DNA of 56,207 nt from Elusimicrobiota bacterium (GCA_046153645.1 JBJXGI010000046.1:1-56207), one strand, 5' to 3'. Shown: positions 15,661-50,900, counted from the stretch's first letter. A program made the numbers and translations. The notes: generated by a model not told the origin, from the sequence alone.

Positions 15661-15691
15661 AAACAGGGATGACGAAAAATATGTGAAAGGT

Positions 15692-16158: not shown

Positions 16159-16178
16159 ACTACAACTAACCTTCAAGT

Positions 16179-16210
16179 CAAAATATCATTTTTAATGAAA
16201 ATGGAGAATG
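16179..16210. repeat. 32-bp direct repeat, copy 1 (left of the MNT-HEPN cassette)
   Basis: caaaatatcatttttaatgaaaatggagaatg; 31/32 identical to 16910-16941. Confidence 0.92.
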
Positions 16211-16215
16211 ATGAA

Positions 16216-16590: not shown

Positions 16591-16901
16591 GCGGCTAAAC
16601 CTTCTCGGCGAATATTTCTTAATAAGGGACTTTGTAGGTCAGTGTAATTCTTCTCTGAAACAGGATAAACAGAAAGCAAAACCCCATGTTGAAGGTTTAA
16701 ATCAGTAATTATTTCAATCATGCGATCTATTTCTTCACCCGGTTTTATATGCCCTTTAATAACAACAACAATATCAATATCAGAATCTTCTGTAGCCTGT
16801 CCCCTAGCCCAAGAACCATATAAAATAATATTGGCCAATTGACTGCCATAGAGAAGTTCAATTTTCCCTCGAAACTCTTTTAAAATATTATCGATTTTCA
16901 T
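16587..16901 (-). CDS. Minimal nucleotidyltransferase (MNT) antitoxin
   Basis: LYGSWARG..TEDSDIDI polymerase-beta motif; C-terminal NIRREG. Confidence 0.92.
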   Translation of the reverse strand: MKIDNILKEFRGKIELLYGSQLANIILYGSWARGQATEDSDIDIVVVIKGHIKPGEEIDRMIEIITDLNLQHGVLLSVYPVSEKNYTDLQSPLLRNIRREGLAA

Positions 16902-16909
16902 TTGAATTC

Positions 16910-16941
16910 CAAAATATCATTTTTGATGAAAATGGAGAATG
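16910..16941. repeat. 32-bp direct repeat, copy 2 (right of the MNT-HEPN cassette)
   Basis: caaaatatcatttttgatgaaaatggagaatg; carries TG-a-TATTTT (extended -10-like) on the minus strand. Confidence 0.92.
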
Positions 16942-16942
16942 T

Positions 16943-26286: not shown

Positions 26287-26849
26287 TTTTTAAAATATTG
26301 TGAGAAATGTTTTGTTTTTGAAATAATCTCATCCAAACTAAAACCCCCAACATCTTTAGAAGAAAGAATGGGGTTTCCATTGGGCCAGCGTATGGCTAAC
26401 TTGGGATCATTCCATAAAAGAGAAACTTCGCTTTTAGGGTCATAATAATCAGTACATTTATATTCAATCTCAACCACGTCACTCATTGAATAAAAACCGT
26501 GCGCAAAACCGAGAGGCACATAAACTTGTCTAAAATTTTCAGCTGAGAGTTCATACCAATCCCACTGTAAAAAAGTAGGAGATCCTGGCCTTAAATCAAC
26601 CACCACATCGTAAATTTCACCTTGCAACACTCGTATCAGTTTTCCTTGGGTATGATTCAGTTGCAAATGGAGCCCTCTTAAAACGCCTTTACTGGAACGG
26701 GAATGATTATCTTGAACAAAAGGCGCTTCAACCCCCAATTCTTGATATTTGGTTTGCTGATAACTTTCAAAGAAAAACCCACGGTCATCTTTAAACACGC
26801 GAGGTTCAATAACAATAACTCCATTTAATTTACTGGGAATAATTTTCAT
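26283..26849 (-). CDS. rmlC: dTDP-4-dehydrorhamnose 3,5-epimerase
   Basis: DDRGFFFESY, QDNHSRS..GVLRGLH, GFAHGF, YKCTDYY. Confidence 0.96.
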   Translation of the reverse strand: MKIIPSKLNGVIVIEPRVFKDDRGFFFESYQQTKYQELGVEAPFVQDNHSRSSKGVLRGLHLQLNHTQGKLIRVLQGEIYDVVVDLRPGSPTFLQWDWYELSAENFRQVYVPLGFAHGFYSMSDVVEIEYKCTDYYDPKSEVSLLWNDPKLAIRWPNGNPILSSKDVGGFSLDEIISKTKHFSQYFKK

Positions 26850-27722
26850 TTAAGAATTCTTTTTTTCAATCAGTTGAAGTAAATATTTTCCGTATTCGTT
26901 TTTAAGCGGCTCAGCTAATTTTTTCAGCTGATCAGGCGAAATGTATTTGAAATGAAATGCGATTTCTTCTAAACAAGCCACTTGTAAACCCTGCCGCTCT
27001 TCAATGGTTTGAATAAAATTCGACGCTTGTAACATGGATTCCGGAGTTCCCGTATCCAACCACGCAAATCCGCGTCCCATTTTTTCAACAAAAAGTTCAC
27101 CAGAACTTAAATACAATCGGTTTAAATCTGTAATTTCAAGCTCCCCCCTCGAGGAAGGTTTTAATTTGGCAGCCAGAGAAACCACTTTGTTGTCATAAAC
27201 ATAAAGGCCTGGCACCGCATAATCAGATTTAGGCGTTTTAGGCTTTTCTTCAAGGCTGATTGCCTTCCCTGTTGAATCAAACTCAACCACACCATATCGC
27301 TCAGGGTCCTTAACTTGATAAGCAAAAATGGTAGCACCTTTATTTCGAGAAGCGGCTCTTTCCAAAAGCTCTGGAAGCCCGTGCCCATAAAAAATGTTAT
27401 CTCCCAAAACCAAGGTGACAGAATCACTACCCACAAAATCTTTTCCAATAATAAAAGCTTGAGCCAAACCTTCTGGTTTGGGTTGGGCCGCATAAGAAAT
27501 ATGTAGCCCTATCCAAGAACCATCTCCCAACAATCTTTTAAACGCTTCTTGTTCGTGCGGGGTGGTGATAATCAAAATATCTTTAATACCAGATAACATT
27601 AAAGTAGAAAGCGGATAATAAATCATGGGTTTATCGTAAACAGGAACAAGCTGTTTACTAATACCTCTTGTAATCGGGTGAAGGCGGCTACCCGATCCGC
27701 CCGCCAAAATAATACCTTTCAT
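26850..27722 (-). CDS. rmlA: Glucose-1-phosphate thymidylyltransferase
   Basis: [14 protein letters not shown]...[37 protein letters not shown]. Confidence 0.97.
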
Positions 27723-28804
27723 GATTTTACCAACCCCAAACGTTCTCGTCGGTATTTACCAGATTGCACCAATTCACACCATTGTTTGTGTTCAAGGTAC
27801 CATTCCACGGTTTTTTTCATATTTTCTTTATAGGAGTGTTTCGGTTCCCATCCGGTTTCTTTTCTGAATTTGGTGGCATCAATTGCGTAACGTTTATCGT
27901 GACCGGGGCGATCTGGCACAAACGTTTTCAACTCTTTATAAGAAGAAATGTTTTTATCTTTTAAATTTTGGTTTTGTTGAATGGGTAAAAACTCATCTAA
28001 CAAAGAACAAATGGTATCAATAGTTTGTAAATTGGTTTTCTCGTTTTCGCCGCCAATATTATAGGTTTCCCCCACTCGACCTTTTTTCCACGCTAAATAA
28101 AGCCCCGCACAGTGATCTTCTACATATAACCAATCGCGAACATTGCTGCCGTCGCCATAAATAGGAAGCGGTTTTCCTTCCAACGCATTTAAAATGACGA
28201 GCGGAATTAATTTTTCAGGAAATTGAAACGGCCCATAATTATTTGAACAGTTGGTTACAATCACTGGAAGGCCATAAGTGTGGTAATAAGCTTTGGCCAA
28301 ATGGTCACCTGCTGCTTTTGAAGCCGAATACGGAGAGCGCGGGTCATAAGCGGTGGTTTCTTTAAAAGCCCCTGTTTTACCTAAACTGCCATACACCTCA
28401 TCGGTAGAAATTTGAAGATAACGAAACTTTTCTTTATTTTCATCGGAAAGACCCGCAAAATATTTTTTGGTTGATTCTAAGAGGACCATGGTACCCATCA
28501 CATTGGTGTTAATAAAAACATGGGGGCCTTCAATAGAACGATCGACATGCGTTTCAGCGGCCAAATTAAACACGCCTTGAGGTTCATATTCTTTGAAGAT
28601 ATTCGCCATCATATGAGAATCTTGAATATCGGCTTCAACAAAAACAAATCGCGGGTGATGCATAACTTCTTTAAGACTCGCTAAGTTCCCTGCATAGGTG
28701 AGTTTGTCAACAACAATAACCCGGTCTTGAGATGAGTTTAAGATGGTTCGAACTAAATTGGAGCCAATAAAACCGGCCCCACCAGTAACAATAAGCGTAT
28801 CCAT
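27719..28804 (-). CDS. rmlB: dTDP-glucose 4,6-dehydratase
   Basis: [60 protein letters not shown]. Confidence 0.97.
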
Positions 28805-30292: not shown

Positions 30293-30583
30293 ATGTTTAA
30301 TATTAGCGAAGACATTCATTCTCTCACCGACTTTAAACGCCACACTTCAAACTATGTGAAGAAAATAAAATATCGCCGCCGACCCATGGTTCTTACTATC
30401 AATGGAAAAGCCGCCATTATCGTCCAAGATGCAGGTTCTTACCAGAAATTAGTGGAACTTGCAGATCAATATGAAGCCCTTTCTTTTGTTCAAAAGGGCA
30501 TTGCACAATCCAAAAAAGGTAACGTCATATCATTAGAGAAGTTTGATAAGCATATGCGCAAAAAACATGCCATATTGCGTTAA
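30293..30583 (+). CDS. Phd/YefM-family antitoxin
   Basis: DIHSLTDFKR, RPMVLTINGKA..IVQDA.SYQ; paralogous to 21465-21743. Confidence 0.9.
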   Translation: MFNISEDIHSLTDFKRHTSNYVKKIKYRRRPMVLTINGKAAIIVQDAGSYQKLVELADQYEALSFVQKGIAQSKKGNVISLEKFDKHMRKKHAILR

Positions 30584-30878
30584 GCTGACCCCCCAAGCAC
30601 AAAAAGATACAGAAGACTTATATAAATGGATTATTCGACGGGCACCACATCAAGGGACCACTTGGTATAACGGATTAATTAAGGCTATTGCCTCTCTCGC
30701 TTATTCCCCTCAACGATGCCCCGTTACTATTAAAGGTAAAGAGCTGAATAAACCAGTTCATCAATTGTTATATGGAAAAAGACCCTACAGAATATTTTTT
30801 TGGATTATGAATCAAGAGGTACATGTTTTACATATTCGTAGGGGCGCCCAAAAACCATGGAGACCTAAAGAACTATGA
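30567..30878 (+). CDS. RelE/ParE-family toxin
   Basis: V.LTPQA.KD...LY.WI, SL...PQRCP, YRIFF, V.VLHIRRGAQ; start set at ATG 30567 overlapping the antitoxin end. Confidence 0.88.
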   Translation: MPYCVKLTPQAQKDTEDLYKWIIRRAPHQGTTWYNGLIKAIASLAYSPQRCPVTIKGKELNKPVHQLLYGKRPYRIFFWIMNQEVHVLHIRRGAQKPWRPKEL

Positions 30879-30882
30879 TACG

Positions 30883-30925
30883 ACTTGACGAAATACTTGA
30901 CGTAAACTTGACGTAACGGTAAACT
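30883..30925 (+). promoter_or_regulatory. fic promoter with three ACTTGACG direct repeats
   Basis: acttgacg at 30883, 30895 and 30906; TTGACG (30897-30902), 17 nt, TAAACT (30920-30925). Confidence 0.75.
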
Positions 30926-30934
30926 ACCGAAGTC

Positions 30935-31921
30935 ATGTATAAACCCATTTTTGAAATAACACCCGAACTACTGCGATTGATATCAGAAGCCACGGAATTA
31001 AAAACATGGATCCACGAATCACTGATCAATGTGCCGTGGCTTCCCCAACTTCAAAAAGAAACAATCATTCGACTTACGCATTCTTCAACATCGATTGAAG
31101 GAAATCCTCTTTCATTAGATGAGGTTGAAATGCTCCTAGATGGGAAAAAAACTTCTGGGTCAGATAAAGACAAACTCGAAGTCACCAATCAATACAAAGC
31201 TCTCAAATGGGTTTCCAAGAAAAAGGCGAGAAAAATTATTACGGAAAAATCCCTTCTGACACTCCATAAAATCATTACTAATAAATTGCTTTCTGATAAA
31301 GCGTCAGGGCATTATAAACAGCGTTCCAATAGAGTTATTAATCCAAAAGGGCACACCGTTTATTCCCCTCCTCCTCCAGAAAAAGCCGAAGCCTTAACCC
31401 AAAATTTAATTGAATGGATCAATTCAGATGAAGCAAAAAAATTACATCCCATTATGTTATCGGCCATTGCTCATTTTCAACTTGTTTCGATTCACCCTTT
31501 TTCAGATGGAAATGGCCGCATTTCAAGAGCACTGGGAATATGGCTTTTATACGCGCGCGACTTTGACATCGACCATGTCTGCGCACTTGATGATTATTTT
31601 AAAAATGAGCATCAACTTTATTACGACAAATTAACTCAAACAAGAGAGTTAGATGACGATTTAACTTATTGGCTTAAGTACGTGGCCAAAGGCGTGGTTC
31701 ATACATTAAAACAGACCAAGGAGCGGATTCTCTCGCTCCAAATTTCCCACAAGGGGTCAAAAATCATTCTTACCAAACGTCAGGAAGAAGTGCTGCGTCT
31801 GCTTCGAGATAAAGGCCGGCTCAAAGCACCTGACATTGAGAAAGCCTTTGATTTAACCCGCGCCCGTGTGGCGCAAATCATGAAACCCTTAACGGATGCT
31901 GGATTTGTCATTCGGGAATGA
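30935..31921 (+). CDS. Fic-family protein with C-terminal winged HTH, probably truncated at the extreme C-terminus
   Basis: HSSTSIEGN inhibitory motif, HPFSDGNGRISR Fic motif, C-terminal HTH (LTKRQ..VL..L...TRARV); the stop codon lies inside a REP sequence. Confidence 0.9.
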   Translation: MYKPIFEITPELLRLISEATELKTWIHESLINVPWLPQLQKETIIRLTHSSTSIEGNPLSLDEVEMLLDGKKTSGSDKDKLEVTNQYKALKWVSKKKARKIITEKSLLTLHKIITNKLLSDKASGHYKQRSNRVINPKGHTVYSPPPPEKAEALTQNLIEWINSDEAKKLHPIMLSAIAHFQLVSIHPFSDGNGRISRALGIWLLYARDFDIDHVCALDDYFKNEHQLYYDKLTQTRELDDDLTYWLKYVAKGVVHTLKQTKERILSLQISHKGSKIILTKRQEEVLRLLRDKGRLKAPDIEKAFDLTRARVAQIMKPLTDAGFVIRE

Positions 31922-31960
31922 CGCCCACTTCGTCGTTAGCTCTAAACGCTAAAGAGACAC
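31909..31960. mobile_element. Right-end fragment of the MITE-like element
   Basis: 45/52 identical to 32838-32889 and ends in the TIR gctaaagagacac. Confidence 0.8.
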
Positions 31961-31981
31961 TCAAGTCGACATCAAAGACAG

Positions 31982-32030
31982 CTGCGCTTTAAACTTGGGA
32001 AGCCCCTAAGCGGTACTCATCCAAATTAAG
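31982..32030 (-). repeat. Degenerate duplicate of the giant gene's 3' end
   Basis: 22-nt exact match ctgcgctttaaacttgggaagc (31982-32003 = 32988-33009); encodes NLDEYRLGASQV* versus NLDDVYNLAASQV*. Confidence 0.85.
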
Positions 32031-32077
32031 AAAGGTTCAATGTGTTATCTGTTGACTCTATTTTAATTTCCCATTTT

Positions 32078-32365
32078 TCATTGATTGGTTATACCCCGTC
32101 TTTCCACTAAGCTACCAATAACAAACTTATGAAGAACGCTCGCCATAAGTGTTTGATAAGGAATTCCTTCTTCTAAAGCCTTAGATTGGATGCCTTCCAA
32201 ATCGACAGAGGATAATCGAATGTTCACTCTTTTGTTTTTTTTGACTGTGGTTTGAGCAAACTTCTTCAGCCGATGTATTTCTTTTCTTAAATTGCTTATC
32301 GATTTCCATTCCCCCCGAGCAATAGATCTGACAATTTCTTTTTCTTCGTTTTTATATGAAGACAT
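32078..32365 (-). CDS. BrnA/CopG-like antitoxin
   Basis: GEWKS, KNKRVNIRLS..DL..IQ.KA.EEGIPYQTL..SVLHKF. Confidence 0.88.
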   Translation of the reverse strand: MSSYKNEEKEIVRSIARGEWKSISNLRKEIHRLKKFAQTTVKKNKRVNIRLSSVDLEGIQSKALEEGIPYQTLMASVLHKFVIGSLVERRGITNQ

Positions 32366-32644
32366 TTATTCACCTCGTTTTAAATAATTTTTAGTTAATT
32401 TTCGATCGGGAAATATTGTTTTTAAAAAAATCTCCTTTTTCGTCTCGACAAATGGAACACTATAAACATAGTTCGCGATCTCAACAACAATAACCCTCTG
32501 ATTGGGATACTTTTTTTTATTTTTATGCTCAATTATATCCAGAATTTTACCGTCTTCTATAAGAAGGAGAACTTGCTCAAAACTAACACCCCTCCAAACC
32601 TTAAGCCATTCATTTTTTTCATAATTCCAGACAATTAATTTCAT
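32366..32644 (-). CDS. BrnT-family toxin
   Basis: WN.EKNEWLK..RGVSFE, HKN..KYPNQ, Y.Y.VPFV, FLKTIFP.RK.T. Confidence 0.88.
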   Translation of the reverse strand: MKLIVWNYEKNEWLKVWRGVSFEQVLLLIEDGKILDIIEHKNKKKYPNQRVIVVEIANYVYSVPFVETKKEIFLKTIFPDRKLTKNYLKRGE

Positions 32645-32994: not shown

Positions 32995-35900
32995 TTAAAC
33001 TTGGGAAGCTGCTAAGTTGTATACATCGTCCAAATTACTGATAAGGCTGGCAGGAGCTATTTGAACAACCATAGAATTCATTAAGTCATTGAGGACGGCG
33101 AAAAGGGCCAGGCGTTTTAAGTCTGATTCATTGAAGAATTGATCGTTGAGCCCTTGTTTTAACCAAGCTGGAATAAATACACGAGAAAAACCACTATCAA
33201 CAGTGGTGACCCATTCAGGTCGGGCTTGTTTTACAGCCGCTTCAATCTGCTTGAAGTTGGCATTGGGTTCTTGATAGGGAACTTGAATGACAATCATGTG
33301 CTCGGCTAAACCAGGCATTTTGGCTATTTCAGCCATGGCATAATTGTAAGCGTTCTCGTTATTTGCAATTAAAACTTCTTTTTGAAGCCTCACAGCGCCA
33401 GAAGTCTGCTGACGACGAGCAAAGGCAATTGAATTATTAATTTCTTTGCTACTTTGAACAAATCGATAGTTCAGGAGCATATCGGGAGTGATGTCTTTCG
33501 TGGTTTGATAAATACTTTCCATAGAGCCTGCGAGCATTTTTTCTTCAGCAGTCTGATCTCTCCTCATAAATAAATTCCAAATATTGCGCGCCATATTAAA
33601 ACGAACTCGCTGAACAAGGTCGGGATCTTGATCGTCTGTCATTGACTGGTTGAGGCGTTTATGCGCGTAGTGAGAAATATCGCCCCAATTATTTCCGGTT
33701 TTTTCTAGTTCATTATTTTTTATGGAGGATAAACCTAAGGAAATAGGTTGAGTTTTTAACACATTATTTAACTCTCTTATTAGAACAATGCGGTTTTTCT
33801 CGTTAGAGGACAGCGTTCGTACCACAGGGTCCTGAATTAATTTTCGGGCAGAGACCGTGTTAGGTAAGATGGCTAATTTTTGTAAGAGCGCCCAAGCAAG
33901 AATAACCACACTCGCAGCAATAACAAGAGGATTTGTAATAAATAAAAATGGCGCAGAAGCCAGTAACCCCATCCCCAATGTTCCTGTTCCAGCAGAAGCA
34001 GAAAAAGTTATAAAGCCCCATTTTTGAAGCATGACGGGCCAAACCAAATAAATAACAGTTAAGAATAAACCGCCAGCCAAAGTGGCCAGAAGAAGTGCCC
34101 TTAAAATTCGATATCGTAACGTAAACGAACTGGGTTTCTCGGCAGATACAACTCCCAATGTCACAACCGAGGCCAAACGTCGCGCCACAGTGGTTGTTTT
34201 TAAAGAGAAAATACTGAATAATTCTTGCATGTAAAGAGCAATAAAACGATGCGCGTCCCAGTTGTCCTGAATAAGATAAATACGGTTAGAAATTTGAACT
34301 GCGCGCGAATCGGCGGCTTCTATAGGGGCATTTAAGGCTTTGAGAACATCATCTGATTTCATATTTCCTAAATTACGACCTTCTCTTAAGTCGATTAAAA
34401 TATCTTTAATATTTTTATTCTTAATTTTTTGTTCTCTTAATAATTTCTCAAAAACATTCTGAACTTCAGGAATTCGAGAAATATTTTCGGGCGTGAGATC
34501 TTCTCGTGTCAGAACTTTAAATGTTCCTTGACCTTGTTTATATTGCTCATGCAACAAAGTCAGTCTGTGCTTAATATTCTGGAACAAGAAATAGCTGACG
34601 ATGATTCCGACCACTAAAACAAAAACAAACATAACAACCACGAGCATGGCTGCAATACCGGCTTCTTTTAACTGCACGACGAACAAATAGTTACCAATAT
34701 TATAACTGACCACACCAGCCACGGCTGCAATTGAAAACCACATGAGCCTAAACGAATTGGCTACAAAAGAACGGGTTAATACTGTCAGATAACGTGAATA
34801 AATCTCTTCTTTTTTTCCACCCGCCAAATCATCGGCAAGAGAAGGGTCAATAAACATGTTTAAGAGCCATAAACTGGGAGGGGCTTTCTTCGCGTCATCA
34901 TCTTCTTCTTTTTTTTGGCCAGCGGTGAGAATTTTTCGCTCTTGAGCCCCGATTTGAATCATAAACCAATTATTCATCACAAGGAGGAGAGCTACTAAGG
35001 ATAAAATAACACTCATCGCCAAAACCAAAATAGTTCTGATCGGATTTGCAACAAGAAATTTAACAATGGCTCGACCTAATTTGGCACGCCAAGATAAAGC
35101 CTCATAACCGGCTTTATCTTCAACCAAACCTAAGTTTCGAGCATTGTCTAAAAATTCCACAATAGAAGGGAAAACTTTATTAATGACAGGCGTCGCACCC
35201 AATACAAAAGCCAACATTAAAATGATCGTCTGAGTTACAACAATCCAAACAAATTGCAAAACAAAGAGCGCGACCATAGCGGCCAAGGACACAAAAAACC
35301 ACGGCCAAGAAATCACATTCAACATGAGAAGAACAGAAGGAAAAAGCATAATAACGGCTAAATGACTAAACGGTTTTCCTTGTCGCCCTCTCGGAATGGC
35401 CTTAAACACAGTGTAAGCGCCAAGAACAGCGGTTAAAACCAAACCACCCAACGCATTACCAATACCGGCATGACCATAAATTTCAGCAACAATAGCTGTA
35501 TTAAAGAGAAATGCCGTTATAAAACCAAGAATCGGCATCATCCAATGTAATTTTCCTTTTTCTCCAGTAACATTATCATGAATGAACGGAGCTAAAAATT
35601 GAGAGGTCACAATCATGAGCGGAAGCGCCAACATGACCACGTTAATAATATTCAATTGAATGAGTGCAAAATAATACAACGACACATAAAAAAATCCCGA
35701 AATAATCATTTCCCAATAAATAATAGGGGCTAAAAGTTTTTCTCTTTGTTGAGGAGTCGATTGGGGAGAGAGACCTTCCTTCGTCCATGGATCTATCACA
35801 GATCTTGTACTATCCGTGCCCAATTCACTTTGAAGCGATACCTGAAAAGCAAGCCCATAATCCGTCCCTAAAACAGCAGAACGTGCCCAGCCCACTGTTT

Positions 35901-38900
35901 CAATATTGTTTCCAGAAGCGTACACACTCACCCCCTTGGCAAAATTGGCCGCGCCAAGCGACCCACCCAAGAGAAGCCCACTAAGACGTGTATAACGAAG
36001 GATCCCATGCGCCGCTAAAATTTGCATAGCCAAAAACCCAAAGAGATACCAAAGCGCGTCAATCCCAACGAAAGGTGTCCAGTTCCGCAAAATAAGAACT
36101 CCCATAAGAGTGACTGTCGGATAAATAACAGGGCCTAACAAATAATATTCTTGACCATCGGCTCTGCCTTCTTTGTCAAAGAAAGAACCTCCTGAAAAAA
36201 TATCAATGGCTCCCACAAAAGGGCTTGCCAAAAGCTGAAACAACCCCATCACCCAACGCAAGCGAGCGTTATTAATACTGTAATGAGGGCCGCCTTCTCT
36301 GGCTTTTAAAGAGAAAAACCGCCACATTCGCCGGACAATACTTCGACCCACATCAGACTGCCCTTGATCCCCCAAAATAGAACCTAAATAATCTTCACTT
36401 TGATAAAAAAGACTAATACTACCCCCCACAGCACCAAACTTTTTTTTCATAAGGTTGTAACGTCCGGTACGAACAAGTTCTCTTGTCATGGGGCGAGTGG
36501 GATATTGCGGGTTCATCATTCCCACCATAACTGGGTACATAAAGCTGGTTCCCTGACTTGTACTCCACCCACAACCCAACGTATCCAAACGATTGAGCGC
36601 ATATATAGCTCTCTGAACGGAACTCGCTCCCCCCTCACCCATGAGAGCAATCATTGAATTAGCTCCACCACCTCTATGTCCTGCTGGTAACGCAGAATCA
36701 CGATCTGGAAAAACCAATGAAATATTTTGGTCTTGCATGACCGAAAATTTTTCGTCGGCCATGGTTTTGGGGTCGTCATAAATCATATTTCGGTCCCAAA
36801 TAAGGGTGTGAGCAACTTTTGAAAAATCGAATGTGCCTTCAACTTCAATTGTTTGGGTTTTCCCTGTTTCTGGATCTTTGACTGTTAATTGATGAGGTTG
36901 AACGAAACTTATCATAAGCCCTTGAACCGCGATGGCTTTAGATGCAAAGTCTCCCCCAACCTTCACACCAAAGGCCACTTTTTCGGTTTTTTCGGTTATA
37001 CGAGGATCATTTTTCTCTTTAACAAAATCGTCTTCTGTTTTACCGGTTGTAATAAAATTAATAAATTCCAAAAATTTGGAACGGTGAATAGATTCGGGGT
37101 CAGGATTTTCAGGGTTGGCTGTGGTAATGCCGAAATTATTTGGCAATAAAAACTTATTATTCGCTCGTTTATCTTTGGGAAGCGTGGCCCAGTATTTATA
37201 GTACTGCGCAATAGATACGGCTGTATCCATACTGGTCTCGCCATATTGTGCCGCAATCAAATATCTTAATTGAAATGCCATATTGAGAGCAGATTTTTCA
37301 GCAGGTGACATATTCCCATTTGGGTTTAATGAAAAATGCCTGGCGCTTTTTTCTAACTGTAGTAGAGGATCATAGAGAGTCATTTTTACATCTAATTCTT
37401 TTCTATGTAATTGGTTTAATAAATATTCCAAAACAAGATCGGCTGCCACACGACCATTTATTTCTTTTTGATTAAGCCGAACAAAAATAGGGCGAAACCC
37501 AAGAAAAGAAAGTTTTGATAACACCCGATCCATGGCAAAGGCTAAAGGTCCCACTGGCTCAAATAAAGAAGGGAGGTTATTGGCCCTTGTATATTCGTCA
37601 AAAAACTTGCGATTGGCAATCAACAAACTTTGCAGTCCTCTACCTCTGTTTTTTCGAGCGATAACGACATTTCTCATGAAATCATCTGTCGCCCCTTTCA
37701 GCCCTTTTGCGGGATCAAATACCGTACTTTTAATTGGGTCTAACCCCGCAAAAAGATCAAGGTAAATAGAACCTTCCGGATAAGGTATCGCGGTTGAGGC
37801 AATCATTATTCGCCGCACCAAAGCCATGAGCAGGTAAACTGAAACAAAAAATCCCAACACATAATATGACAAAGAAACCCCCGCTTTAGCCCCGGTGTAT
37901 TCTCCTTGAAACACCAAAAAGAGCGGAAGCATTAATATAATAGGAAGAACGGAATATCCCAGAGTCCAAGCCCATCTTGGTTTATGCCCGGCTTTGATAT
38001 AAGCCAGTAACCCATTAATAGCCGTCACCAAAATATACAACCCAACCAATATGGCAAACCCGGCGAAAGACCAAACGGCCACTTTACTGGCCCCCAGCAA
38101 AGTAAAGAAAAGAATGGCTGTTCCAATGGGGATAAAAGCGGCCACCCAACCAAATAATTTAACCTGGTCTCTCCTAAAAGGCTCCATCAAAAATTCGCCG
38201 AACATTTGAACAACTCCAGCAATAACAGTTAAGATCATTCTAAGCGCGTAACGAGACAGAATCATAATACTGATGAGGCTGGCCGTGGCCACCATAAGGC
38301 GCGTGTCATGTGGGGCCACTTGAGAGACAATAAACTGCACAATAAGCCCAATTGTGAAAATATGTTTCATCCCAATCCAGGTGATTATTTTGGGATCGTA
38401 ATTTCGAAGGTAATAATAACGTTTGGAAATCAAATCGCGCGCATTGCTAGACATCCAAGAAGGGTTATAGAAAGCAATAACTATTAAAATTCCAATAGCT
38501 GCAATAACCCAAGCAGCAACGGAAGAACCACTAATAATAAAAACAGGAATAATAAATCCAACACCAATTCCTAAAAAGACAATTCTCTTCAAGCTGCCCA
38601 TACGACCTTGCCAGTTTAAATAATTATCAACCCAATCCCAGTCAAAATGACGAATTATGCTTGCTAAGATAAAAGTAACAACCAATCCCGCCATGCTCAG
38701 AAGTTGCCCAGGGGAGGTAGACAGGTTATAGCTGGGCGTAAAAAATGTCCAAACGGTTAACCCCATCCCGATCACAAAAATAAAAAATACAATGGTTCGG
38801 ATATGAGAAGTTAAAATAGACCTAAAAGAAAGGCGCTGAACATAAGGGAAATGGTAAATAAAAGATCGGCTAAAAAGAGATTGGTTGTATCTGAGGCGAA

Positions 38901-41900
38901 TCAACGCTTCGAGCCCAAGGGCCACCATGAGCACCAGGCGAATAATGCCCACATCTTGCGTTCGTGAATCAATAAGAAATAAACCGGCCAAACCAATGAG
39001 AGAAAAAATGCCCCGGCCCCATCTTCCAATAGCTTTAGCTCTATTCACATTGGTCGTTCGGCCATAAGTAACCAATCGAATGAATAAATTACCAGCAATA
39101 GCGACAACGAAGATCATTGTTCCATAATAATTATGAGCAAGATTTAACACCTTGGGCAGAGAGTTATATATGGGGTCGACTCCAAATACCCCCACCCCAT
39201 GAAACACCGCAATGAGAAGTCCCGCAAAAAATAAATGAAAATACAGGTGATACATGAGTTTGACAGAACCATTGGTGGAATTATTCCCCAGCGAACTGTT
39301 TGGTTCGGTTTCGCGAAATTCTTTATGTTTACGTTCAAATGTGTTTTGGTCATACGTCCACTCAAAAACATTTTTCTGAATTTTCCTACCATTCTGATTT
39401 GATCGGACCTCTATGGTTTTTTCTCTCTCAACAAATCCCATTCGACTAAAAGCTTGATCAAATGTAATTTCATCTCCTCCACGTTCTTTTGGGAGTCCCA
39501 ATGCATCAGAAAAAGCCAAACGAAGCAATTCGCGAATTTCAAGCCAATAAAATTCCATGTCATCATAAACAAGAGAAGTGGTTTTTTCGTGGCTTTTTCT
39601 TGTTTCGGTGTAATAGTTTTTCTGTAGGAATGCTTTGTTTAAAGCATTGTCGTCCATCCACACTGTACCAGACCAGATAATGGTTAACTCAAAAAGTGCC
39701 GCCTTTTGTTCTGGGGAGAGAGAATCATCGCCGGCAAGCTTTGCTTGAATTAATGATCGTCTTTGTTGTTCAGATAAGGGGCGTTTCTGTTTTTTTGCTA
39801 GCTCTTTAAGTTCTGAAAAATTTGTGTATTTTTCTTTGAGTTCATTTCGAGATTGAAAAAAACCCCAATCATCATCCAACTGCTCTAATGCATTCCACAT
39901 CGCCACCAATTCCCTTAGCAATTCGCGTTGGTCGAGCGTGAGAGAATTATCAGCGTTAACAGATGGAATATCTTTATATTTATTTTTTAAATCTGGAATG
40001 GAAAGATTTAAGCCCAATGATGATACAAGCTGTTCTTGTTTTGTTGATACTTTTGTTAAGTCTTTAATATTTTCTGTTATTCCCAGATATTCATCGATTA
40101 AGGTTTTTTGATTCGAATTAAGATATTGATCACCTTTAACTTTTTTAAGTCTGTCTTCTAGTGAGTCTTCTTCTCTATAGCGTTCCAAAAGTTCTTCATC
40201 GGTTAAATTTAATCCAAGTTCATTTCGAATGGCACTTTTTCTAGCTACATAATCGTCATGATCGTTCTTTTTTTTGTCGATTTTGGCCAATTCCTCAACA
40301 AGTTGTGTATGTCGAGGAGTACCAAGCAGTCCATTTAAATCAGTATTAATTTTTTCTCTTCTGTTCTTTAAATGATCGAGGAACGAAGTTGGCCGCCACA
40401 AAGACAGCAATTTTTTCAAAAAGTTTTTCTGAGCAAAGTCCAAACTATTATCTACATCAATGGCAGCATCTTTTGGATATCGTTTAACTAAATCCTGTAT
40501 CGAAGCTCTTAACTGAACTTTCTCTAATAATTCTCTTTCTTTCAGAGACTCTCGTTCGGGATAGGTTGGTTTAACAAGGCCCGCATTTGCATTTCTTTGG
40601 AAGTGTTTCCATAATTTTTCCTCATTTTTAAAACGCCTCAAAACGATGCTCATGCGTTTTTCAGGAACAGGAAGCGCTATGTTGGCTTGAGAATAATCAC
40701 GCTCAAAATCACTCAGCTCTTTCTTCAGTATTTCTTCAATTGCATTTAAGTCAGTAGCTTGTGCTGTTGTAAGCCTTGTATATAATACAGCTAAGTCTTT
40801 TTCAAGCCAATCAAATGAATTAGTTCGAAGTGCATTTAAGGCTTTAAGCATGGCATCTTCCCGATTCATTTCTGGGTTCTTCTTAGAAAGTGCTGCGAAT
40901 TGATTTATTAATAATTTATAAACAGGACTTTGGTCGCTTCTATCCAATAAAGCTTTGGTGTCTACTTCGCCGATTCTAAAGGGGGTTTCGGGACGGCGTT
41001 TTCTCGCATTTAAATCTAATAATTTTTCAGAGAAGAATTCTTGTATACCGGCGAGCATTTTTTCAATTTGTTCTTTGGAAGGAACAATAGAACCGAAAGA
41101 GGTATAACTTGCATTTCCATCTAGTTCTAAAGAAAGATCTAACTCATCAGTATCCTGTTCGTCCTGAACAGGTGGGCCGGTAGCGTCTTCAAGTTTTGTG
41201 GTTTTAAATTGGGACTGTGCCATTCTTTCAATCACCACTGGTTCACTTAACAGCTGAAGCCAAAGATAACTGATCATCATATTGTAAATAAAAGACAATT
41301 CAGCAGCGCTGCGGTTTTTGCCATCCACAACTTTCCACATCAATTGATAATTATTAAGAGATGATGTTATTTCTTTTCCATTTTCTTTTTTCTTATAGGT
41401 CCATTTTCTAATACCAAGAACTTCTATTCCATAAACGCTCAATTTTTCTTGAACAAATCTGTGGATGAGTTTATCACCGGCACGGTCTTCGGCGCTTAAT
41501 GGTTTTCCTTCTTTTTGTGCCCGGTCGTCGTAAATATCTTGAAGAAGCTCCACCATTTCAGGAGGAAGCACGTCATATTCATCTAATTTATGAGAAACAC
41601 GGAACAGTCTTTTTCCGATAGCGCGTAACACCATGAAAATGGGAATCAAAGCTAACCCAACAGATGAAGCGAAAACCAACGTAACCGCCATTCCTAATAA
41701 TAATGTGCCCGTTACAAGAGGCCCAACAAAACGACCTCTTTTTGACATAGTCATGGAAAGTAAATAAGTCCCAACGTTCCAGAGGGTTACAATCAAATAA
41801 AACAAAGCCACAATAGCAGCCATTAAGGTAGCGCCATTTAACTGGCTAAAAAGCCGGTTTTCTAAACTTTCCCACGCAGTAATAAGGCGCCCACGGGTGC

Positions 41901-44900
41901 TGTCGTATTTAAGCTGCTCTACTTTAAAATTTGGATTCTGTAATCGACTTACTTCATCAATATTCAAGTTCGCCTCTTTATCAACCTCATCTGCCATGGG
42001 GGTCATCATGGGTTCTTGTTTGAGGGCCTTACGAACATGATCAGAGGCGTTAAGGTCTTCGCCCCACACTTTGGGCTCATTTTCTCTGCTAAGAAGTGGG
42101 TCCTTTTGCAGTGCTTGTGGTTTATCTTTGCCCAAAAAAGTATCGGGCCAAAAAGGCACTTCACTATTTGAATAATAAATATCATTCCCCACTCGAACGC
42201 CATTATTAAGAGACTCTGGGGCCAAACCAATAATGCTTGGCAAAAGTCCACCCTTGCCTTTGGAATAAGCATTGAGCGCCTGCTTAGCAATTTTTGTCAT
42301 TTCGTCTTCATCCATTCCCAAGGCATGGGCTACTTGTACGTAAAGAGCGGTTAAACGCACGTCAATGACATCAACCGATCCGTCGGGGGTTAGCGGTGTG
42401 AGCCCCCACACCTTTATTCCTTTATCCTCTACCCATACGCCGTGAACTTGGGCCACTTGGAGAAGCATATTTTTTAGATTCTTTTTAAATACCATCGCCT
42501 TCAAACGTTTAAAAAAAGAAACATCTTCAGCGTCCAAAGTCTTTCCATCTTCATCTACCATTTGGCTGCCGGCCATTAACGCATAGAGCGAGGAATAAGC
42601 ATTGGTTCTGTTTTCACGACTTAACTGATAAAAATCAAACTGAACACTTTTTTTGGTTCCATCTTTTAATGTGATTTCCCCTTTTGGACCTTCTGGTGTT
42701 TTGGCTCCCTCTACGCCTTCTGGAACACGGGTTTCGCGTACTCGTTCGGGAACTGAGCCATCACGTGCGTGAGCAAAAGCATTATCAATCAACCACTGCT
42801 GCTGAATGTTTCGACGCGCTTGAATATCATCTAATAAAGTCTGTAAACTAGTTTTAACAGTTGAGTTTTGGGCTGTACCAAGTGAGTTCTGTACAAATTT
42901 AGCCCATTCGCCAAGCCGCATCATGGCCAAAGCATTAGAGGTAATTTCATTTCCATCAGGAACTCTTTGCCCTTTAATAATGGTCCGCCCTAATGCTTTC
43001 CACTCAAAACCAGCGTCTGGCTGCCATTCCACAAAACCACGCGGCACTGTCGGCCCTTGTCGATATTCAGCTTTACCTGTTTCTAAATTAATGTATTTTT
43101 CAACAGCCTGGAAACGCACCAGATGTTGATAACATTTAATAAAAAGATCAAATGCTTTTGGATCGTTGGTTGATAACCATAACTGCATGGCAATATCGGC
43201 CCCATGAAGTTGGGCTTTTATCACGTTTTCCGCATTGCCCAGTCTGTCGTATTCTGGATATATTTTTTTGGGTTGCGCGTCAGCAATGTTGTAGGAATCA
43301 AAAAGTGGATTGTTTGCATCATCAATTAACGTAGAAAATTCTTTTAAAAACCCTTCTTTTTGTTCTTTAGTTCCATATTTTGCGAGTAATTCCACATAGG
43401 TTCGCAATTTTTCCGGTGTCACCAAATCTTTTACTTTTTCACCGGTTTCTGTTGGAGGAATAAATTTAAACGCACCGCCTTTTTTAATGCGGGCCACATA
43501 AGCATCAAAAATAGCTTTATCGATATTCTCTTCTTTCAGTTTATTTCGCTCGAAATGACGCATTGACTCAACCGAAGGATTTTCTCCGGTGAGTTTTGGA
43601 GCATGCGTCAGCGCAGGGTGAACAGTGGGTGTACGACCGATGACTTCTTCGACAGAAGCAGGGCTTACCAAAACAGGCAGAACCGGCCCTCTTAACTGAG
43701 CTATTCTATTTTCTTTTTTTCCTCCTACTGAAAATCGACCAACTAAGTTTGCAAATACGCTCGCCTGCGCTCCTTCTGGAGTTAAAAGTTTGGCGAGAGA
43801 AGTATCAGTGTCACTGGAAATTTTAAAACCAGCCGGCGTTCCAAAGAAAATAGCGGCTAAATTTTGTTCCGGCAGTCCTTTACTATCTAATTTAAATTGG
43901 CTGGTAGAAATATCATAAACAAGGAGTTTCATGGCTCCGCTATAACCATTGTCACGCAGGTAAAAAATAACCGTGTTTTCTTTTTCATTATAAACATAGG
44001 CGTAAACACCGGCCGACCAACCGGAATTCAAATCAGTAATATTGGCCACAGGCCCTGAATAACCAGGAGAATTATTCGGTAAATGGTTAACAGAAACGCC
44101 CACCACCTTTTTTCCTTCCTGTAAAGGGAAATTGGTTTGAGTTAATTGACCATGAATAAACACTTGTGATGTTCGCATCCATTTTCCATTTTCCGTTAAA
44201 CGCAAGGGACCAAAACTGACTGTTGTGTCTCCACGAGAACCATGATGTACGGTGACAGGTTCTGTGAGGGGTGTTAATACTTTTTTGCCACCAACCACTT
44301 CCACTCGACGGGACTGGGGAACACCCAAACCCACTTGAGAACCCGGCAACTGAAAACCAATCACATCACCCCTATAAACAAATGGATCCTGACTATCTGA
44401 ATCCATTTTTACTCCGATACTGGCAATTTGAGAAACGTCCAAACCCATCGCAGTTAAATCAGCTACTGTAATAAATAAAAATTCGCTGCCCTTATTTGTA
44501 TCTAAAGAGCGAGAAAAACCTCTCATCGGATTAGTGCCACCTCCGGCCAATTTGCCATTGGGTAATCTGACAAATTGTGGGTTAACTGACATTTCGCCGA
44601 TGGTTGAAAAACGCATGTTTCCATCTTTACCAATAACCACATCACTGCCAGCTTTATCTTTTATGGTCACTGTAATATCTAAATTTGGGTCCATCCAACC
44701 TTGACCAGAAGCTCTACGAACAGGAATGGCCACCATAAATCGGTCTGACCAATTTTCATCTCCTACGGGCACTCCAAATTGAGTTGATTTCCCATCTTTT
44801 CCGCCGACACCATATGTCTGCCAACTGTTTTCTTGTGGCGTAAATTCGAGAATATCAACTGTGTTCCTATTTCCATTCTCAGCAAAAACTTGTGTTCTGG

Positions 44901-47900
44901 TTTTGACAACAGGGTGTTCTCCATCGGTTAATACTTTCCAAGAATATTTTTCTCCTCCTGTGAAAACATTAAGCTCAGCCAGGCGAGACTCGTTTATTTT
45001 TCCTCTGAGAGGGATACCGCTCACATAGGGGTTTTGATCTAAAGTGGCCACAGTCTCGGAAGTAGACACAGGCATCAAACGATCGGGGAGAAGCTCGCCT
45101 GTTTGAAAATCAGCCGCGTTGGTCACTCGAGTTAAATTTTTGGCTCCTTTTTCTCTCCATTGTTGGGAGGGAGCGTGCCACTCAAAATCAGGAAATTCTG
45201 TTCGGTCCCATGGAGTTGATTGAGGACCACTGGCATAATTTCGATCAATGGCCACTCTTTGTCCTAAGGAGTTATGCCATTGAACAGACGGTGTATATCC
45301 GCCCATTAAATTTCTTTCCTGTTTTAACACCATAGCCAAACCTTTGGCAGTTAATTCGCCTTTCCATTCAAAAGGCCCTGAACGGAAGGAAGCGGAGGTA
45401 TAAATGGTGTCAGGCTCATTCTTTAATATGTTGTCTCCTCGTTTGTTATAAACCAAACGTCTTATTTCCGACCCATGTCCCATAACACCTGGTCGCAAAG
45501 GCGCTATTGATTTTTCATGCACAACGACATGAAACGGATCTTCTTCACGAACAACGGGGCTCACGGGGACGCCATATAAATCTCGAAGGCCAGGCGCGTG
45601 AGGTTCCATATTCACCACTTTCCAATAAATATTCGATGGACCGCTTTCAGGAATTTTTATTTCGTTTTTCTTATCATTAATAAAGGCATTCATTTCAGCA
45701 GAGCGAGAAGATGCCAACGGGCTATTGCCATAAAATTCTTGTGGATAAGCCCACAATTCCGTTGCTCTCGTCCAGTTGCCTTTTTTATCAACTTCGATCT
45801 TATTGGTTTTATAAAAAACCAAAGCGTGCCCTTTTTCATCAACTAACTTCGTTTTGAAATCGTAATTTTTACCATGAGCTAAATAATGATCTCGCGCCGC
45901 TTTTGTGTCGAAAAAAGTGGTTTGTCTATATCGTAAATCATCAATTGCGTATAAATGACCAAATTCGCCGTCATAAGTGCGGTCTTCTGACTTTGTGATT
46001 GTTTCACCCTCAGCCGTTTCAATAATATAGTCAATGCGGTAAACCACTCGACCTTCACTATCGACAAGCGGAACATCTGGTTTTGAAGGGTCAAATTGGA
46101 GTGTATAAACTTCTTTCCCTCCCCCAGATTTAACTTCAACAGCGCTCGGAATCATTCGGAAAGTTTTTGGGTTTTTTACGTAAGGACCGGGAAATGTGAC
46201 GGTCTCTCCTTCTAAGGATTCTTTCAGTTTTAAAAACTTCTCAGGTGTTTGCCAACTGACGGGAGAAAATTTTTCGTCGGTTCTTTTTTCGTTATCATCT
46301 ACCGTCACACGACTGCCGTCGGCTTTAAAGAGGGTTGTTTCAAGAACGCGAACCCCTCTCCTTTCTTTTGAATAATCCGACATGTTAATGGGAAATCGAG
46401 AGAAAAACTCATCAATTTTATTCAATAAAATTTTCTTGCTCGATATAATGTCAGAGGCACCATTGGGATTTCTGAAATTTGGTGTAAACGTATTTAACGT
46501 CAAAATAATATTTGTACCAACAACCGAAAGTTCAAGATCATCTTTTATTTCTCGACTGGTGTTTATATTTTGCAGCAATGGTTTTTTTATTGTTGTGATT
46601 GCACCATTTTCTTCTTTTTTGCCAAAAGAAATTCGAATATCAGCGCCTTCAATGACAGCCAAAACATCTCCAAAAGCATTATGAAGTTCTAAACGAGGAT
46701 GACCAGAGTTCGGAGAGGTCGCTCTCACCCATCTAAATTCAGCCCCTCCAGCCAACGTGATTGTTTTTAAAGGAACGTAATTATCAAGTGCCCCAGTCAC
46801 TTGGTTGGGCGCGAAAGGATGATCGGCCGGAGCAATGGTTTTTTTGAGGCGATTGGCATCAATTAAACCATCCTTAATTAAACCCCGAGCAATGGCCACG
46901 GTAGAACCAGGGTTCGCCACAAAATTCGGGTCAAAAATATCAATTTCATAAGGTTTTAAGAAATTTTCAATGAGTCGAACCAAATGATGACGAGATTGTT
47001 CCACACCAAAAAACTGGGTTACAATTTGCCCTCCATTGACACCTCTTCTTCTATAGGAATGATCTCTCAAAGCGCGAATGGCTTGTAAATATTTTGCTGG
47101 TTGAAAATTACCACCCTGTCTTTCTTTGGCATACAGGTCCAACAACCGGCGCAGCTCTTGAGCTTCATTGGAAACCATGCGTTCATATTGAGTTCCCAAA
47201 GAAAAAACAACATCCATGGGTTTATCAACTTCATGCCAACCCTGTTCTTTTGAAAGGTTAATAATCTTATATAAAGCAGCATATGACTCATTAAGCATTT
47301 TTAACTGCTCTTTTTCTTTATCATCTAAATTTTGTTTTTCCTCAAGTTTTAAAATTCTTCCATTTAAGCCTAACGCATATCTGATAGCTCGGTTATATTG
47401 TTCGTTTCCAATCACTAACACGTGTTGACTTCCATCCACACTGGCCCAATATAATTGCCGGGCGGCGTCAATTTTGGCCAGCTCTTTATCAATAAGCCGG
47501 TGTTCCGCTGCTTTTTGACCCCCTAAAAAAGTACCAGCCATTGTTCCGGCACCACTGAACGCGGCTAAATCTACTTTGGGAATGGCATTTTTTTTCTTTA
47601 GCAAAGCTTCTTCATGCTGTGATAACCAATAAAGAGCTTTTCGAACCCCAAAGTAGTCGTAACGAAAGGTGTCTAATATCTCAATTCGTTTTTTCATGAT
47701 TTGGTCAAAATATTTTTTATGAGCGAAATCGACTTCACCACTATTAACAAACTCATCATGTTCATCTAAAAGCTGAGCTAGTTCTCTCTCAAGCCCATAA
47801 ATATAATCTTTCGACCCCTCTAAAGCGGGATGTTTTTGATGTCCATTGGCGATTTCGAATTTGGGATCCAACGCATTTAAAAGCGAAGCCCTCAACGTTA

Positions 47901-50900
47901 AAGCAAGAGGGCTTTGATAGCCTTGCCCGATTAAGTTGGGATTGGCCAAGCGATTAATGAGTTTATTGGCCAAGCGGCGAACTTCAGGGTCAATAACCCG
48001 CTGGTGATTAGGGGCAAAAAGACCCTGATTTAAATATTTCATAATTTCACCTGGAGGAACCCCGGCAATAACGACGACACGAATAGGATCCAAAGGAAAC
48101 GCAAAACGTTTTCTTTTTCCGACTTTGGTTGGGTTTCCATCACCAGGGTGAGCGGGAAGTGCCGCCAAACCAGGAATTTCATTAATATAACCAACACTGG
48201 TTGGTTCAGCGTCTTTTTCAATGGCGCCGCCCAACAATTCAAAAAAGAGCACCAAATTTCCCATGTCTCTTTCAAAATCCTGAGTTGTTGAAAGCGGCGA
48301 ATTGGGGTTAAATAAAACGCGGGAGTTAATAACTTTTTTTGTTTGTGGGTCCCAATACACATTATCTAATACTTCTCTTTCTTTCCAACCCACTTGCCAC
48401 TTCATGTAAGCTTTTTTATTTTTCAAATCAATGGCTCGGAAACCTTGACTTCCAAGTTCACCTGTATAAGAAAAATCTAATTTTCCTTCTTTTTCTAATT
48501 TAGAAAACTTTTCAAATTCTCCAGGTTCAAGTTTCACTTCCATCACAATTTGTGGCTGCAGTTGAACCCCGTCAACATTTACGACGTACTCACCCGTGAT
48601 GCGGTCATAACGATCATGTCGATAAGTTCCAATTTTACTTTTTCTTAATCGATGAGTAATAACTCCGGTCTCTCGGTCATAGGCCACTTCAACATCTCCG
48701 TCGTCTAATATATGAGCGGCGACTTTTTTAATGGTTTCTGACATTTTTAAATTATGTGTGGCCTCTTCCATTTCTGTTGTGACCTGAGCGGCTGAACCAA
48801 AAAGCGGTTGTTGTTTTGATATATCAGGCGCTTTTTGAGCCAGCGCTTTTAATCCATCAAACCGAGGCAAATAAGTGGGGTTAAACCGGTGAGCGCCCAT
48901 CAAAGGCCGCTGCGCTGAAATGACACTGATTAAAGAGGTGCCACTCATTGATTTAAAAAATTCCATACCTCCCACGCCCACAGCTTTCCCTTCAGCGGGG
49001 ATCCATTTTGTTTTTCCATCAAAATCAGTAATGGGTTCATATAAATAAGCCAGTCCGCCCCCTTTTTGTTCAGGCTGCAAAGGCATTTTTGAAAGGAAAT
49101 CTTTCAATTCGCGAGACCTTTTTTCTAACTCATTCAATTTATTTCTCAACACAATAACTGCTCCCAAATCAATGGAAGACGCTGTTTGTTTCCACTGTCT
49201 CTCCATGCGTTCAAGATTAAATTTGACATAGGGAATCCCCACTTGATCCAAGGCCAATGAAGCGTCGCTTAACCACTCATAAACAAAAGCGGTTTTAGGA
49301 ATTTCTGTCATTTTCATTAAAAGTTGAAAGTATTGAACGCCTTTTTGTTCTAACTTTTCTGGTTCAATAGATAAAACGGCCAATGCTTTGGCGTCAATTG
49401 GATAACCTACTTTTGGCTGATTAAGTTTTTGATTGTCGCGAATAAAAAATTGTTGTGTTTCAAAATCAAACATTCTCGGTTCAATATTAAATTTATTTTC
49501 ATCTTTAAGATCTTGATACGGAACTTTCTCAAACATGTAATCGAGCGCTTTATTGGCAGCCAATTCATATTTTTTATCTTTGAATAAATCGTACCAGTCG
49601 CGGGCCGCTTTATAAAAACGTATTTGATATTCAGGGTTGGCATTTTGATAACCCGTTGCGTAGCGAACCTCACCACTGGCGAGTTGATTTTGAAGAGCAT
49701 AATCGAGCAAATTAACAGCCGCTTTGTAGTAGAAAGAATCTCCCGTCGTTAAATACAAGTTACGAAATGCCATGTGAAGCGACAGTGAAGGGCCAAAACT
49801 TTCTTCCATTTCAAAAATTTGACCACTGTCTCCATAAATGGCCTGCGCGGGAACTCCGTTAATTAAACGCCACGGTTTTTTAAGTTTGCTGGGGCTTCGG
49901 TCTTCAGTGCCCGTTAAAAGACGGTTGGCCAATTGTTTGGCTTTTTCAATGTCTCCTCGGCGAATCAAGTGATCAATTAATTCTGCGTGGTCATACAAGA
50001 AAACCGCATCTTTCAGTTTAGAATCACCCAAAGAAGAAGGCGGGGTGGGTTTCTTTAAAAATTGGGCAAGTACTTTTTCGAGTTCTTGAGCGCGAGCTTG
50101 TTCTGCTGCATTTAAAACAGGTTTTTGTTGAGGCGCATTTTGTTTGAAAATGGGTTCAAAAAGAGGGCCATTTCTTTCGGCCTCAACACGGCGCTCAAGA
50201 TTGTTTTTAAAGGGAGGTTTAAGAACTTCTTCTTTTTTTGTTTTTTTATCTTCAATGGGGGTGATATTTAAAGTTTTTACGTCAAATATTCTTAAAAAAC
50301 TAAAAGGTTCAGCTAATTTAAGTGAATAAAACCAAGCTGAATAACCAGCCCCACCCAACAAAGCGATGAGGATTGCATTTTTTAGTCCTCTCTTTAATGC
50401 GCTTATTCCATATTTATAAATTCCAAAAATGAGGATGGCAAAAACCAAAACAAAAATAAGCGCACCACGAAAATTTTGAGGCAGGGTCGGCAATGCAATA
50501 TATTGAGGGAGGTAAAAAGCGGCAATAATTAAAACGGAAACAAAAAAGAAAAGACCTGAAACTGGAGGTGGCGCTCTGCCTTTTGCAGTCCCTCTTTCAG
50601 ACCACATTTTCATGATAGCCACAGACATGGCCACACCACCACCTGCATACAAGGTAAGTTGTGGCAGAATCTCTGGCGACATGAGAGCAGAAAAAGCACT
50701 CGCGGTAAAAGACCCAAGAGCGGTCCATGCAAAAAGATTTTTAGAAAAACTTTTAAAACGTTTTTTTCTTAATTCTTTTATTGTGAGAACTGGTATTGGA
50801 GCCGCTGGTGTTTGAACACTTGGTTCTTCTTTTTTGGGATCCATTTTCTTTTTGAATTGGAATCGGGCCGCTTCATTGGCCAAAATGGCTGTTAATAAGA

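Follow-up and report, generated by a model that had tools for sequence, protein, structure and literature searches.

A putative processive glycosyltransferase family combining GT48-type and GT2-type motifs within bacterial giant proteins

GT48 synthases, the family of Fks1/Fks2 and the plant callose synthases (PF02364; 9wzv, 7xe4), are antifungal drug targets. Beside them, the systems closest to the locus described here are the GT2 synthases of the BcsA type (with CesA, CslF6, CrdS and the hyaluronan and chitin synthases), PF02364-positive modules of the bacterial phyla Elusimicrobiota and Omnitrophota, and the cyclic beta-1,2-glucan synthase Cgs (GT84, 8rf9). In Fks1, residues K1082, D1102/N1104, E1221/D1222 and K1246/R1248 are required for function (PMC10499315), and a DAN takes the place of DxD, the activity being metal-independent (PMC12715860). 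GT2 synthases keep the D,D,D,QxxRW signature together with KAG and FxVTxK, and beta-1,3 and mixed glucans are made by GT2 enzymes too (PMC6821405). According to a callose synthase preprint, BcsA has R382 where GT48 uses RxTGR for the pyrophosphate (10.64898/2026.05.05.722910). GT48 has been called convergent with the GT2 synthases (PMC6821405) and a recent review takes the common GT48/GT2 fold as an evolutionary link (PMC12715860). The text of another account treats GT48 for algae, plants and fungi only (PMC3797821). In the full-text literature, a scope with most subscription journals outside it, we found no paper on the family described here or on bacterial GT48. Two preprints on giant proteins mention domains of GT1 and GT5, and no processive synthase is named in their main text (10.1101/2023.11.21.568195, 10.64898/2026.06.07.730766).

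The window, that is, the whole stretch of 56,207 nucleotides that was analysed, is an entire contig (G000:C38) of an Elusimicrobiota genome. Among proteins encoded next to family loci, those from loci labelled Elusimicrobiota resemble this genome most (mean 57% over 8 proteins, against 48% over 5 for Omnitrophota and 40% over 16 for Verrucomicrobiota), in keeping with this phylum. A 7,736-codon reading frame stays open over its right 23 kb (32995-56205, minus strand, as are its features given below) and encodes a giant membrane protein of 7,736 aa, the 5′ end of which lies beyond the contig edge and the synthase module of which sits near the C-terminus. A sequence-only reading of this DNA had proposed a soluble segment flanked by transmembrane blocks and carrying six motifs in a fixed order. 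Each of the six is present once in this frame and in that order, from 36948 to 36253: FASKAIA (36948-36928), LIWDRNM (36804-36784), GCGWST (36576-36559), QSEDYLG (36402-36382), LKAREG (36309-36292) and NARLRW (36270-36253). Hydropathy also places membrane blocks on both sides, upstream at about 39258-37792 and downstream at 36252-35167. The span initially given to the domain, 36200-37400, does enclose the motifs, but its upstream limit is too short, since the family alignment makes the soluble domain begin near 37770.

An exhaustive phmmer search (E ≤ 0.001) returned 74 proteins, one of them the window's own, which leaves 73 homologues, and the D, SED and RW residues proved near-invariant among them. 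Residues are numbered as in the window copy P0001 (window:35206-37908:-), and the counts that follow, taken over the ungapped rows of the 73 homologues at each column, are partly circular because the homologues were chosen by likeness to the query. K324 (36937-36939), which aligns with the GT2 KAG and would be the equivalent of Fks1 K1082 and of the BcsA KAG lysine in donor binding, is kept in 61/61 rows. At the DxD position lies DRN (36787-36795; D372 63/63, R373 62/63, N374 55/63), comparable to the Fks1 DAN (D1102/N1104), with N as third residue in 55/63 rows and D in 4/63. The family-specific G-x-G-W (36565-36576; G447 and W448, 64/64 each) is placed at the GT48 YGHP or BcsA FCGS by position only, being unaligned in hhalign, and the GCGWST of the window departs here from the family consensus GxGWGN. 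SED (36391-36399; S504 68/69, E505 and D506 69/69 each) starts the finger helix, and comparison with BcsA D343 and Fks1 D1222 makes D506 the predicted catalytic base. Taken by the sequence-only reading as a GT48 motif, SED is indeed the plant form, whereas yeast Fks1 reads NED. KARE (36295-36306), a GT48-type KxR[E/D] that aligns to the KxRE of bacterial GT48 and corresponds to Fks1 K1246/R1248, is complete in every row (K535, R537 and E538, 70/70 each). Finally, RWxxG (36244-36258; R551 71/71, W552 70/71, G555 69/71) is a GT2-type interface helix at the place where GT48 has K[FI]xxG, and the Q position of QxxRW is A, S or V in 71/71 rows and Q in none.

The mixture of patterns that had been claimed is thus real: DxN and KxR[E/D] are of the GT48 type, and RWxxG is of the GT2 type without its Q (0/71). 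The Fks1 residues required for function all have counterparts in the same order in the family (K, DxN, ED, KxR[D/E]), at similar spacings (E-to-K 30 versus 25 residues in Fks1; R-to-R/K 14 versus 13). With BcsA-type GT2 enzymes the family shares the K of KAG, the ED finger helix and an RWxxGxxQ helix; it differs from them in having no DD, DxN instead of DxD, no FxVTxK and KxRE where BcsA has xQPE. In comparison with GT48, which carries K[IF]xxG, YGHP and Y-x-x-TGR (RxTGR), the family has RWxxG, GxGW and F-x-x-SG. The first DD/YxE donor motif, including the first DD of the GT2 signature, is not kept in the family alignment, so that any assignment of the donor sugar from motifs is tentative. One member that lay outside every profile build (genome G392) keeps K, DxN, GWG, SED and RWxxG and has RxRA at KxRE. 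Chance occurrence of the motifs is ruled out by their conservation across the 73 homologues, and an intact QxxRW-type GT2 is ruled out by the lack of the Q in all 71 rows.

An AlphaFold2 model built from a 39-row alignment (pLDDT 70.9, pTM 0.75), together with fold searches, predicts a GT-A catalytic domain with insertions, presumably cytoplasmic, at 36232-37770, the start of which was set by the family alignment. It lies between the upstream membrane block (37792-39258) and the downstream one (35167-36252); the latter, the predicted export channel, holds an F-x-x-S loop at the gating-loop position (35836-35847). Hydropathy adds further C-terminal membrane helices at 33853-35070. The first strand, which the family alignment sets at residues 45-64, is poorly modelled (below 50 pLDDT). 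Elsewhere in the model D372 lies at the end of strand 365-371, K324 and E505 at helix starts (helix 505-519 in the latter case), K535 at a strand end and R551-W552 in the helix that follows, and these positions are those expected of a processive GT-A enzyme. Foldseek, the check proposed by the sequence-only reading, put BcsA (4p00) on top (E 5.2e-5) and Fks1 (9wzv) second (E 3.0e-4), followed by CesA, hyaluronan and chitin synthases. With VIA-align, BcsA 4p00 reached Z 14.7 (449 aligned, rmsd 4.1), PcManGT Z 13.8 (336 aligned, rmsd 4.4), Fks1 9wzv Z 13.4 (493 aligned, more than in any other of the 50 matches listed; rmsd 4.8) and the hyaluronan and chitin synthases Z 11-12.6; Fks1 was not among the best 50 of the wide structure search, and its Z of 13.4 comes from a later comparison. 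The alignments reach into the membrane part, over model residues 7-794 for BcsA and 1-788 for Fks1. The model supports a GT-A domain seated against a bundle of membrane helices, a fold of the processive type, and we consider it very probable that the family is one of processive synthases. The predicted structure by itself does not decide between GT2 and GT48.

In order to compare the family with both groups, we aligned profiles with hhalign as single pairwise comparisons without secondary-structure scoring. The family alignment A3 (54 rows) was partly picked by the SED, KxRE and RW patterns, three duplicate and two pattern-less loci being excluded; A4 holds 11 PF02364-positive bacterial modules, which match Fks1 at E 8.5e-52, and A5 holds 20 CelA-like GT2s, which match BcsA at E 3.4e-57. 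A3 matched A4 at 96.7% (E 3.2e-10, 259 columns) and A5 at an unconvincing 11.5% (E 0.0026, or 0.073 with a rebuilt alignment). The alignment with A4 is collinear, running from the strand after DRN through SED, KxRE and RW (opposite KF) into the membrane helices and on to the gating loop, and its score of 90.6 compares with 16.2 for the reversed control and at most 30.6 across 30 block shuffles. The link was kept for both bacterial GT48 subgroups (91.5% and 88.7%) and with rebuilt alignments (95.7% and 93.6%). Its signal arises mainly from the membrane half, because this half alone matches bacterial GT48 at E 1.4e-8 (GT2, E 0.09) whereas the soluble half alone reaches E 0.067 (GT2, E 0.0014); the N-terminal half gave no match (E 0.085-0.35). 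The window copy with its single close relative reached only E 0.013 against A4, and the GT2s themselves match the bacterial GT48 modules at 74%. To eukaryotic GT48 the link is a transitive one, through the bacterial modules, a direct match being absent (0.6%, E 0.088 with 19 sequences; E 0.033 with 18). By eye the N-terminal insert (LH..E, RxW..S..QT) resembles Fks1 residues 873-1003, but this likeness proved not significant (E 0.13-0.35) and was discarded.

These comparisons bear on whether the family could be an independent, strongly diverged GT2 lineage, to which the name synthase would still apply and in which the GT48 likeness would stem from convergence or from a bias of membrane composition. 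Its GT2-like RWxxG and F/xKA, the first rank of BcsA in the structural scores, the slightly better match of the soluble half to GT2 and the missing direct match to eukaryotic GT48 would all suit such an origin. We nevertheless regard it as improbable, given a membrane part that matches bacterial GT48 far above GT2 and above the reversed and shuffled controls, a collinear match that takes in SED, KxRE and the gating loop, the GT48 traits DxN and KxRE, and a QxxRW glutamine missing in 71/71 rows. Fairly read, the sequences would form a separate, highly diverged family, with the bacterial GT48 modules as its closest detectable relatives and a GT2-type RW in its active site; it is likely sister-like to these modules, distinct from them and processive. 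By the defining tests the family belongs to neither GT2 nor GT48, though apparently working like both. Of the new subfamily proposed by the sequence-only reading, its separateness is supported; a phylogenetic position between GT2 and GT48 is not supported, the soluble half matching neither convincingly.

The bacterial PF02364-positive modules resemble the family in lying inside giant membrane proteins and in carrying [SN]ED and KxRE, but unlike it they retain the GT48 motifs YGHP, K[F]xxG and TGR, and their match to Fks1 is direct. In 401 sampled genomes of the same phylum, the family profile found members in 6, with two copies in some and one in the window genome, and PF02364 matched in 14 (7 above cut-off), always in ORFs of 1,183-9,048 aa. 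The two module types never occurred in one genome among the 401, which we do not take as mutual exclusion because no overlap between 6 and 14 of 401 is expected by chance. A search with A4 of 5 further genomes carrying the family found nothing, and in the window genome PF02364 gave nothing at E 10, while PF13641 (GT2) matched 13 places, none of them on the window contig. True PF02364 modules occur in giant proteins of the phylum at G043:C1:1737323-1738792 and in 13 other genomes (L071-L092), with E down to 9e-65; they fall into NED-type and SED-type subgroups, and Omnitrophota proteins carry PF02364 modules too.

On balance, we think it probable that the family is an uncatalogued bacterial one of membrane-embedded, likely processive glycosyltransferases related to the bacterial GT48 modules. 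Its enzymes would likely build beta-glucan from UDP-glucose and thread it through a channel of their own. By comparison with BcsA and Fks1, K324 and D372/N374 would hold the nucleotide sugar and D506 would serve as base in an inverting mechanism; R551 would lie on the pyrophosphate and W552 stack under the acceptor sugar, as in BcsA, while K535/R537, like their Fks1 counterparts, would be found along the acceptor site. An RW without RxTGR is coherent, because BcsA places R382 on the pyrophosphate where GT48 places RxTGR. By analogy with Fks1, the DxN motif hints that the reaction may be metal-independent. The helices after W552 would form the channel, through which the product would be threaded towards a glycosidase-fold barrel encoded upstream. 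Across the membrane, this barrel would act on the chain as it emerges, whether by binding, trimming or remodelling it, and the window copy may only bind it. BcsZ acts likewise on cellulose.

Taken separately, a beta-glucan is quite probably the product, and beta-1,3 is the single most likely linkage, tentative as this assignment is; the motifs are unable to fix the linkage because GT2 enzymes make beta-1,3 and mixed glucans too. A processive synthase of this family that makes another polymer (e.g. mannan, galactan, HexNAc or a mixed one) is rather unlikely. The same fold is found in hyaluronan and chitin synthases and in PcManGT, the first donor motif differs, a family member (P0005) has sugar-nucleotidyltransferase domains of the fucose-pyrophosphorylase type, and a hydrolase neighbouring some loci scores best as GH42. 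The nearest profile kin, however, are GT48 modules, the characterised members of GT48 make beta-1,3-glucan, and UDP-glucose pyrophosphorylase is encoded next to the synthase in 4/54 loci. Among those 54 loci the large GH42-like hydrolase adjoins the synthase gene in 7; the loci with either neighbour are of the Verrucomicrobiota type and related to one another, and many of the 54 are too short to reveal neighbours. Neither neighbour is present in the window, and a UDP-glucose pyrophosphorylase query gave no match in the window genome.

The barrel belongs to the conserved regions upstream of the synthase, which we traced with iterated profiles starting from one 4,201-aa member. In the window this partner domain, predicted to lie outside the inner membrane, spans 42136-43461 (E 8e-72), and a second conserved partner region spans 44386-44922 (E 7e-8); a possible second, more diverged helical barrel at 49612-50127 has a weak match of 4.0 bits, which is not significant. 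In family members the barrel directly precedes a membrane anchor. Of the 33 phmmer homologues that have at least 1,500 aa upstream, 26 carry it; among 31 GT48 carriers scanned, none does. Its fold was taken from another member, L011 (30 rows; not the window copy), whose model is an (alpha/alpha)6 six-hairpin glycosidase fold (pLDDT 90.5) that aligns with MmpH at Z 25.9 (rmsd 3.0, 300 aligned), with epimerases, GH15, GH76, GH94 and GH8 close behind. No acid is invariant across the 30 rows, the best kept being E61 (24/30), E259 (25/30) and D320 (27/30), and in the window E61 is replaced by L and D320 by T, so that only the E259 equivalent is retained and two of the three best-kept acids are lost; any enzymatic activity of the barrel is accordingly putative.

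A comparable pairing in one chain exists in Cgs, which joins a processive GT-A (Z 10.5, 470 aligned) to an (alpha/alpha)6 domain, and its cyclisation domain (8wy1) aligns with the family barrel at Z 20.2. Cgs nevertheless scores lower than the other matches, and, unlike in Cgs, the family barrel precedes the synthase and has a predicted position across the membrane. The motifs of Cgs also differ from those of the family. Eukaryotic GT48 differs in context as well, since the family module follows a glycosidase-fold barrel and is part of a bacterial giant protein.

Could the window copy be non-processive, acting in lipid or protein glycosylation, or be an inactive domain in decay, carried as cargo by a polymorphic giant protein? 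In a family-only, unrooted tree, this copy and its relative in genome G318 form a long separate branch, with 39% identity between the window copy and its nearest relative, and this divergence, the GCGWST motif, the deviating barrel acids and the second rank of PcManGT by Z would be compatible with such a state. Both the window copy and the G318 relative retain every family-invariant catalytic residue, though, no stop codon interrupts the frame over 7,736 codons, and the BcsA and Fks1 alignments cover the membrane part too, and for these reasons we judge it very unlikely.

With pieces of the window protein and with 31 homologues out of the 73 as queries, Pfam matched no glycosyltransferase family. 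Searched against PDB sequences, neither the single protein nor either of two family profiles gave more than chance matches, and the profiles missed Fks1 and BcsA. The ESM Atlas yielded no usable match, a result without weight, and a word-index search with A3 among proteins of 1,141-3,255 aa scored none, which is weak evidence. Many of the phmmer homologues are 3,000-7,700 aa long, and when 10 homologues were checked by label, 4 were from Omnitrophota and every named one was annotated as hypothetical. A pattern scan derived from a sub-alignment located 54 loci, according to record titles mostly in Verrucomicrobiota and Omnitrophota, and also in Elusimicrobiota, Planctomycetota and single others. 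These observations support a separate synthase family that has been overlooked by Pfam and PDB sequence profiles, and hence missed by Pfam-based annotation.

A bacterial family with mixed motifs, to which the bacterial GT48 modules form a bridge, opens the origin of GT48 to testing. One doubtful but consequential idea is that the family is a living intermediate in that origin, with the GT48 channel, DxN and KxR[E/D] in place and the GT2 Arg-Trp still in use. If this were true, and taken together with the PF02364-positive modules, the fungal and plant beta-1,3-glucan synthases would descend from a GT2-like cargo of bacterial giant proteins, and a single chain would unite synthase, channel and glycosidase-fold barrel into an assembly line for beta-glucan. 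The family also offers natural chimeras in which to ask what determines linkage and metal need. For giant proteins, which are mostly discussed as degradative or predatory, it suggests a concrete role in building a surface or periplasmic polysaccharide.

Several further features of the giant proteins and of the window deserve mention. A full-length relative of the window ORF (P0003, genome G318) has 7,739 aa and an N-terminal signal-like segment, and several of its regions match the window ORF. A compact version of 4,200-4,600 aa with a C-terminal synthase is found in P0012 and in the Verrucomicrobiota-type loci L009-L036; it includes a long beta-rich region (P0012 residues 1000-1700), YD/RHS-repeat-like by eye, and a related region occurs in the GT48 carrier P0088. 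The family member P0005 is fused to NTP-transferase and fucose-pyrophosphorylase domains (Pfam; residues 1144-1618). At four loci (L027, L039, L030 and L031) the synthase gene is broken across several frames in the records, whether through assembly error or real breaks.

The window genome contains dozens of ORFs longer than 1,200 aa. The first 1,500 aa of the giant ORF (51700-56205) form beta-rich, repeat-like domains with one weak Big_6 match, below cut-off (Pfam). On another contig, an ORF of 1,822 aa (G000:C98:1-5466, minus) with a signal-like start runs off the contig end; it carries a head domain common to many giant proteins of this genome, and its repeats show 63% identity to the first residues of the window ORF. 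It is probably the missing 5′ part of the window giant gene, which would then exceed 9,500 aa in total, although no exact sequence overlap was found between the two contigs. A second giant ORF of 2,769 aa without a Pfam match occupies 1457-9766 (minus) of the window. At 12614-19150 and 25423-28804 (minus), 4-20 kb downstream, Pfam recognises a GH57 branching enzyme, a GT5/DUF4912 protein, an oligosaccharyltransferase of the STT3/AglB type and a four-gene cluster of the dTDP-rhamnose type. The small genes at 30293-32644, which separate the giant gene from that of a flavin oxidoreductase, include one for a Fic protein (Pfam) and two pairs that by eye resemble toxin-antitoxin modules.
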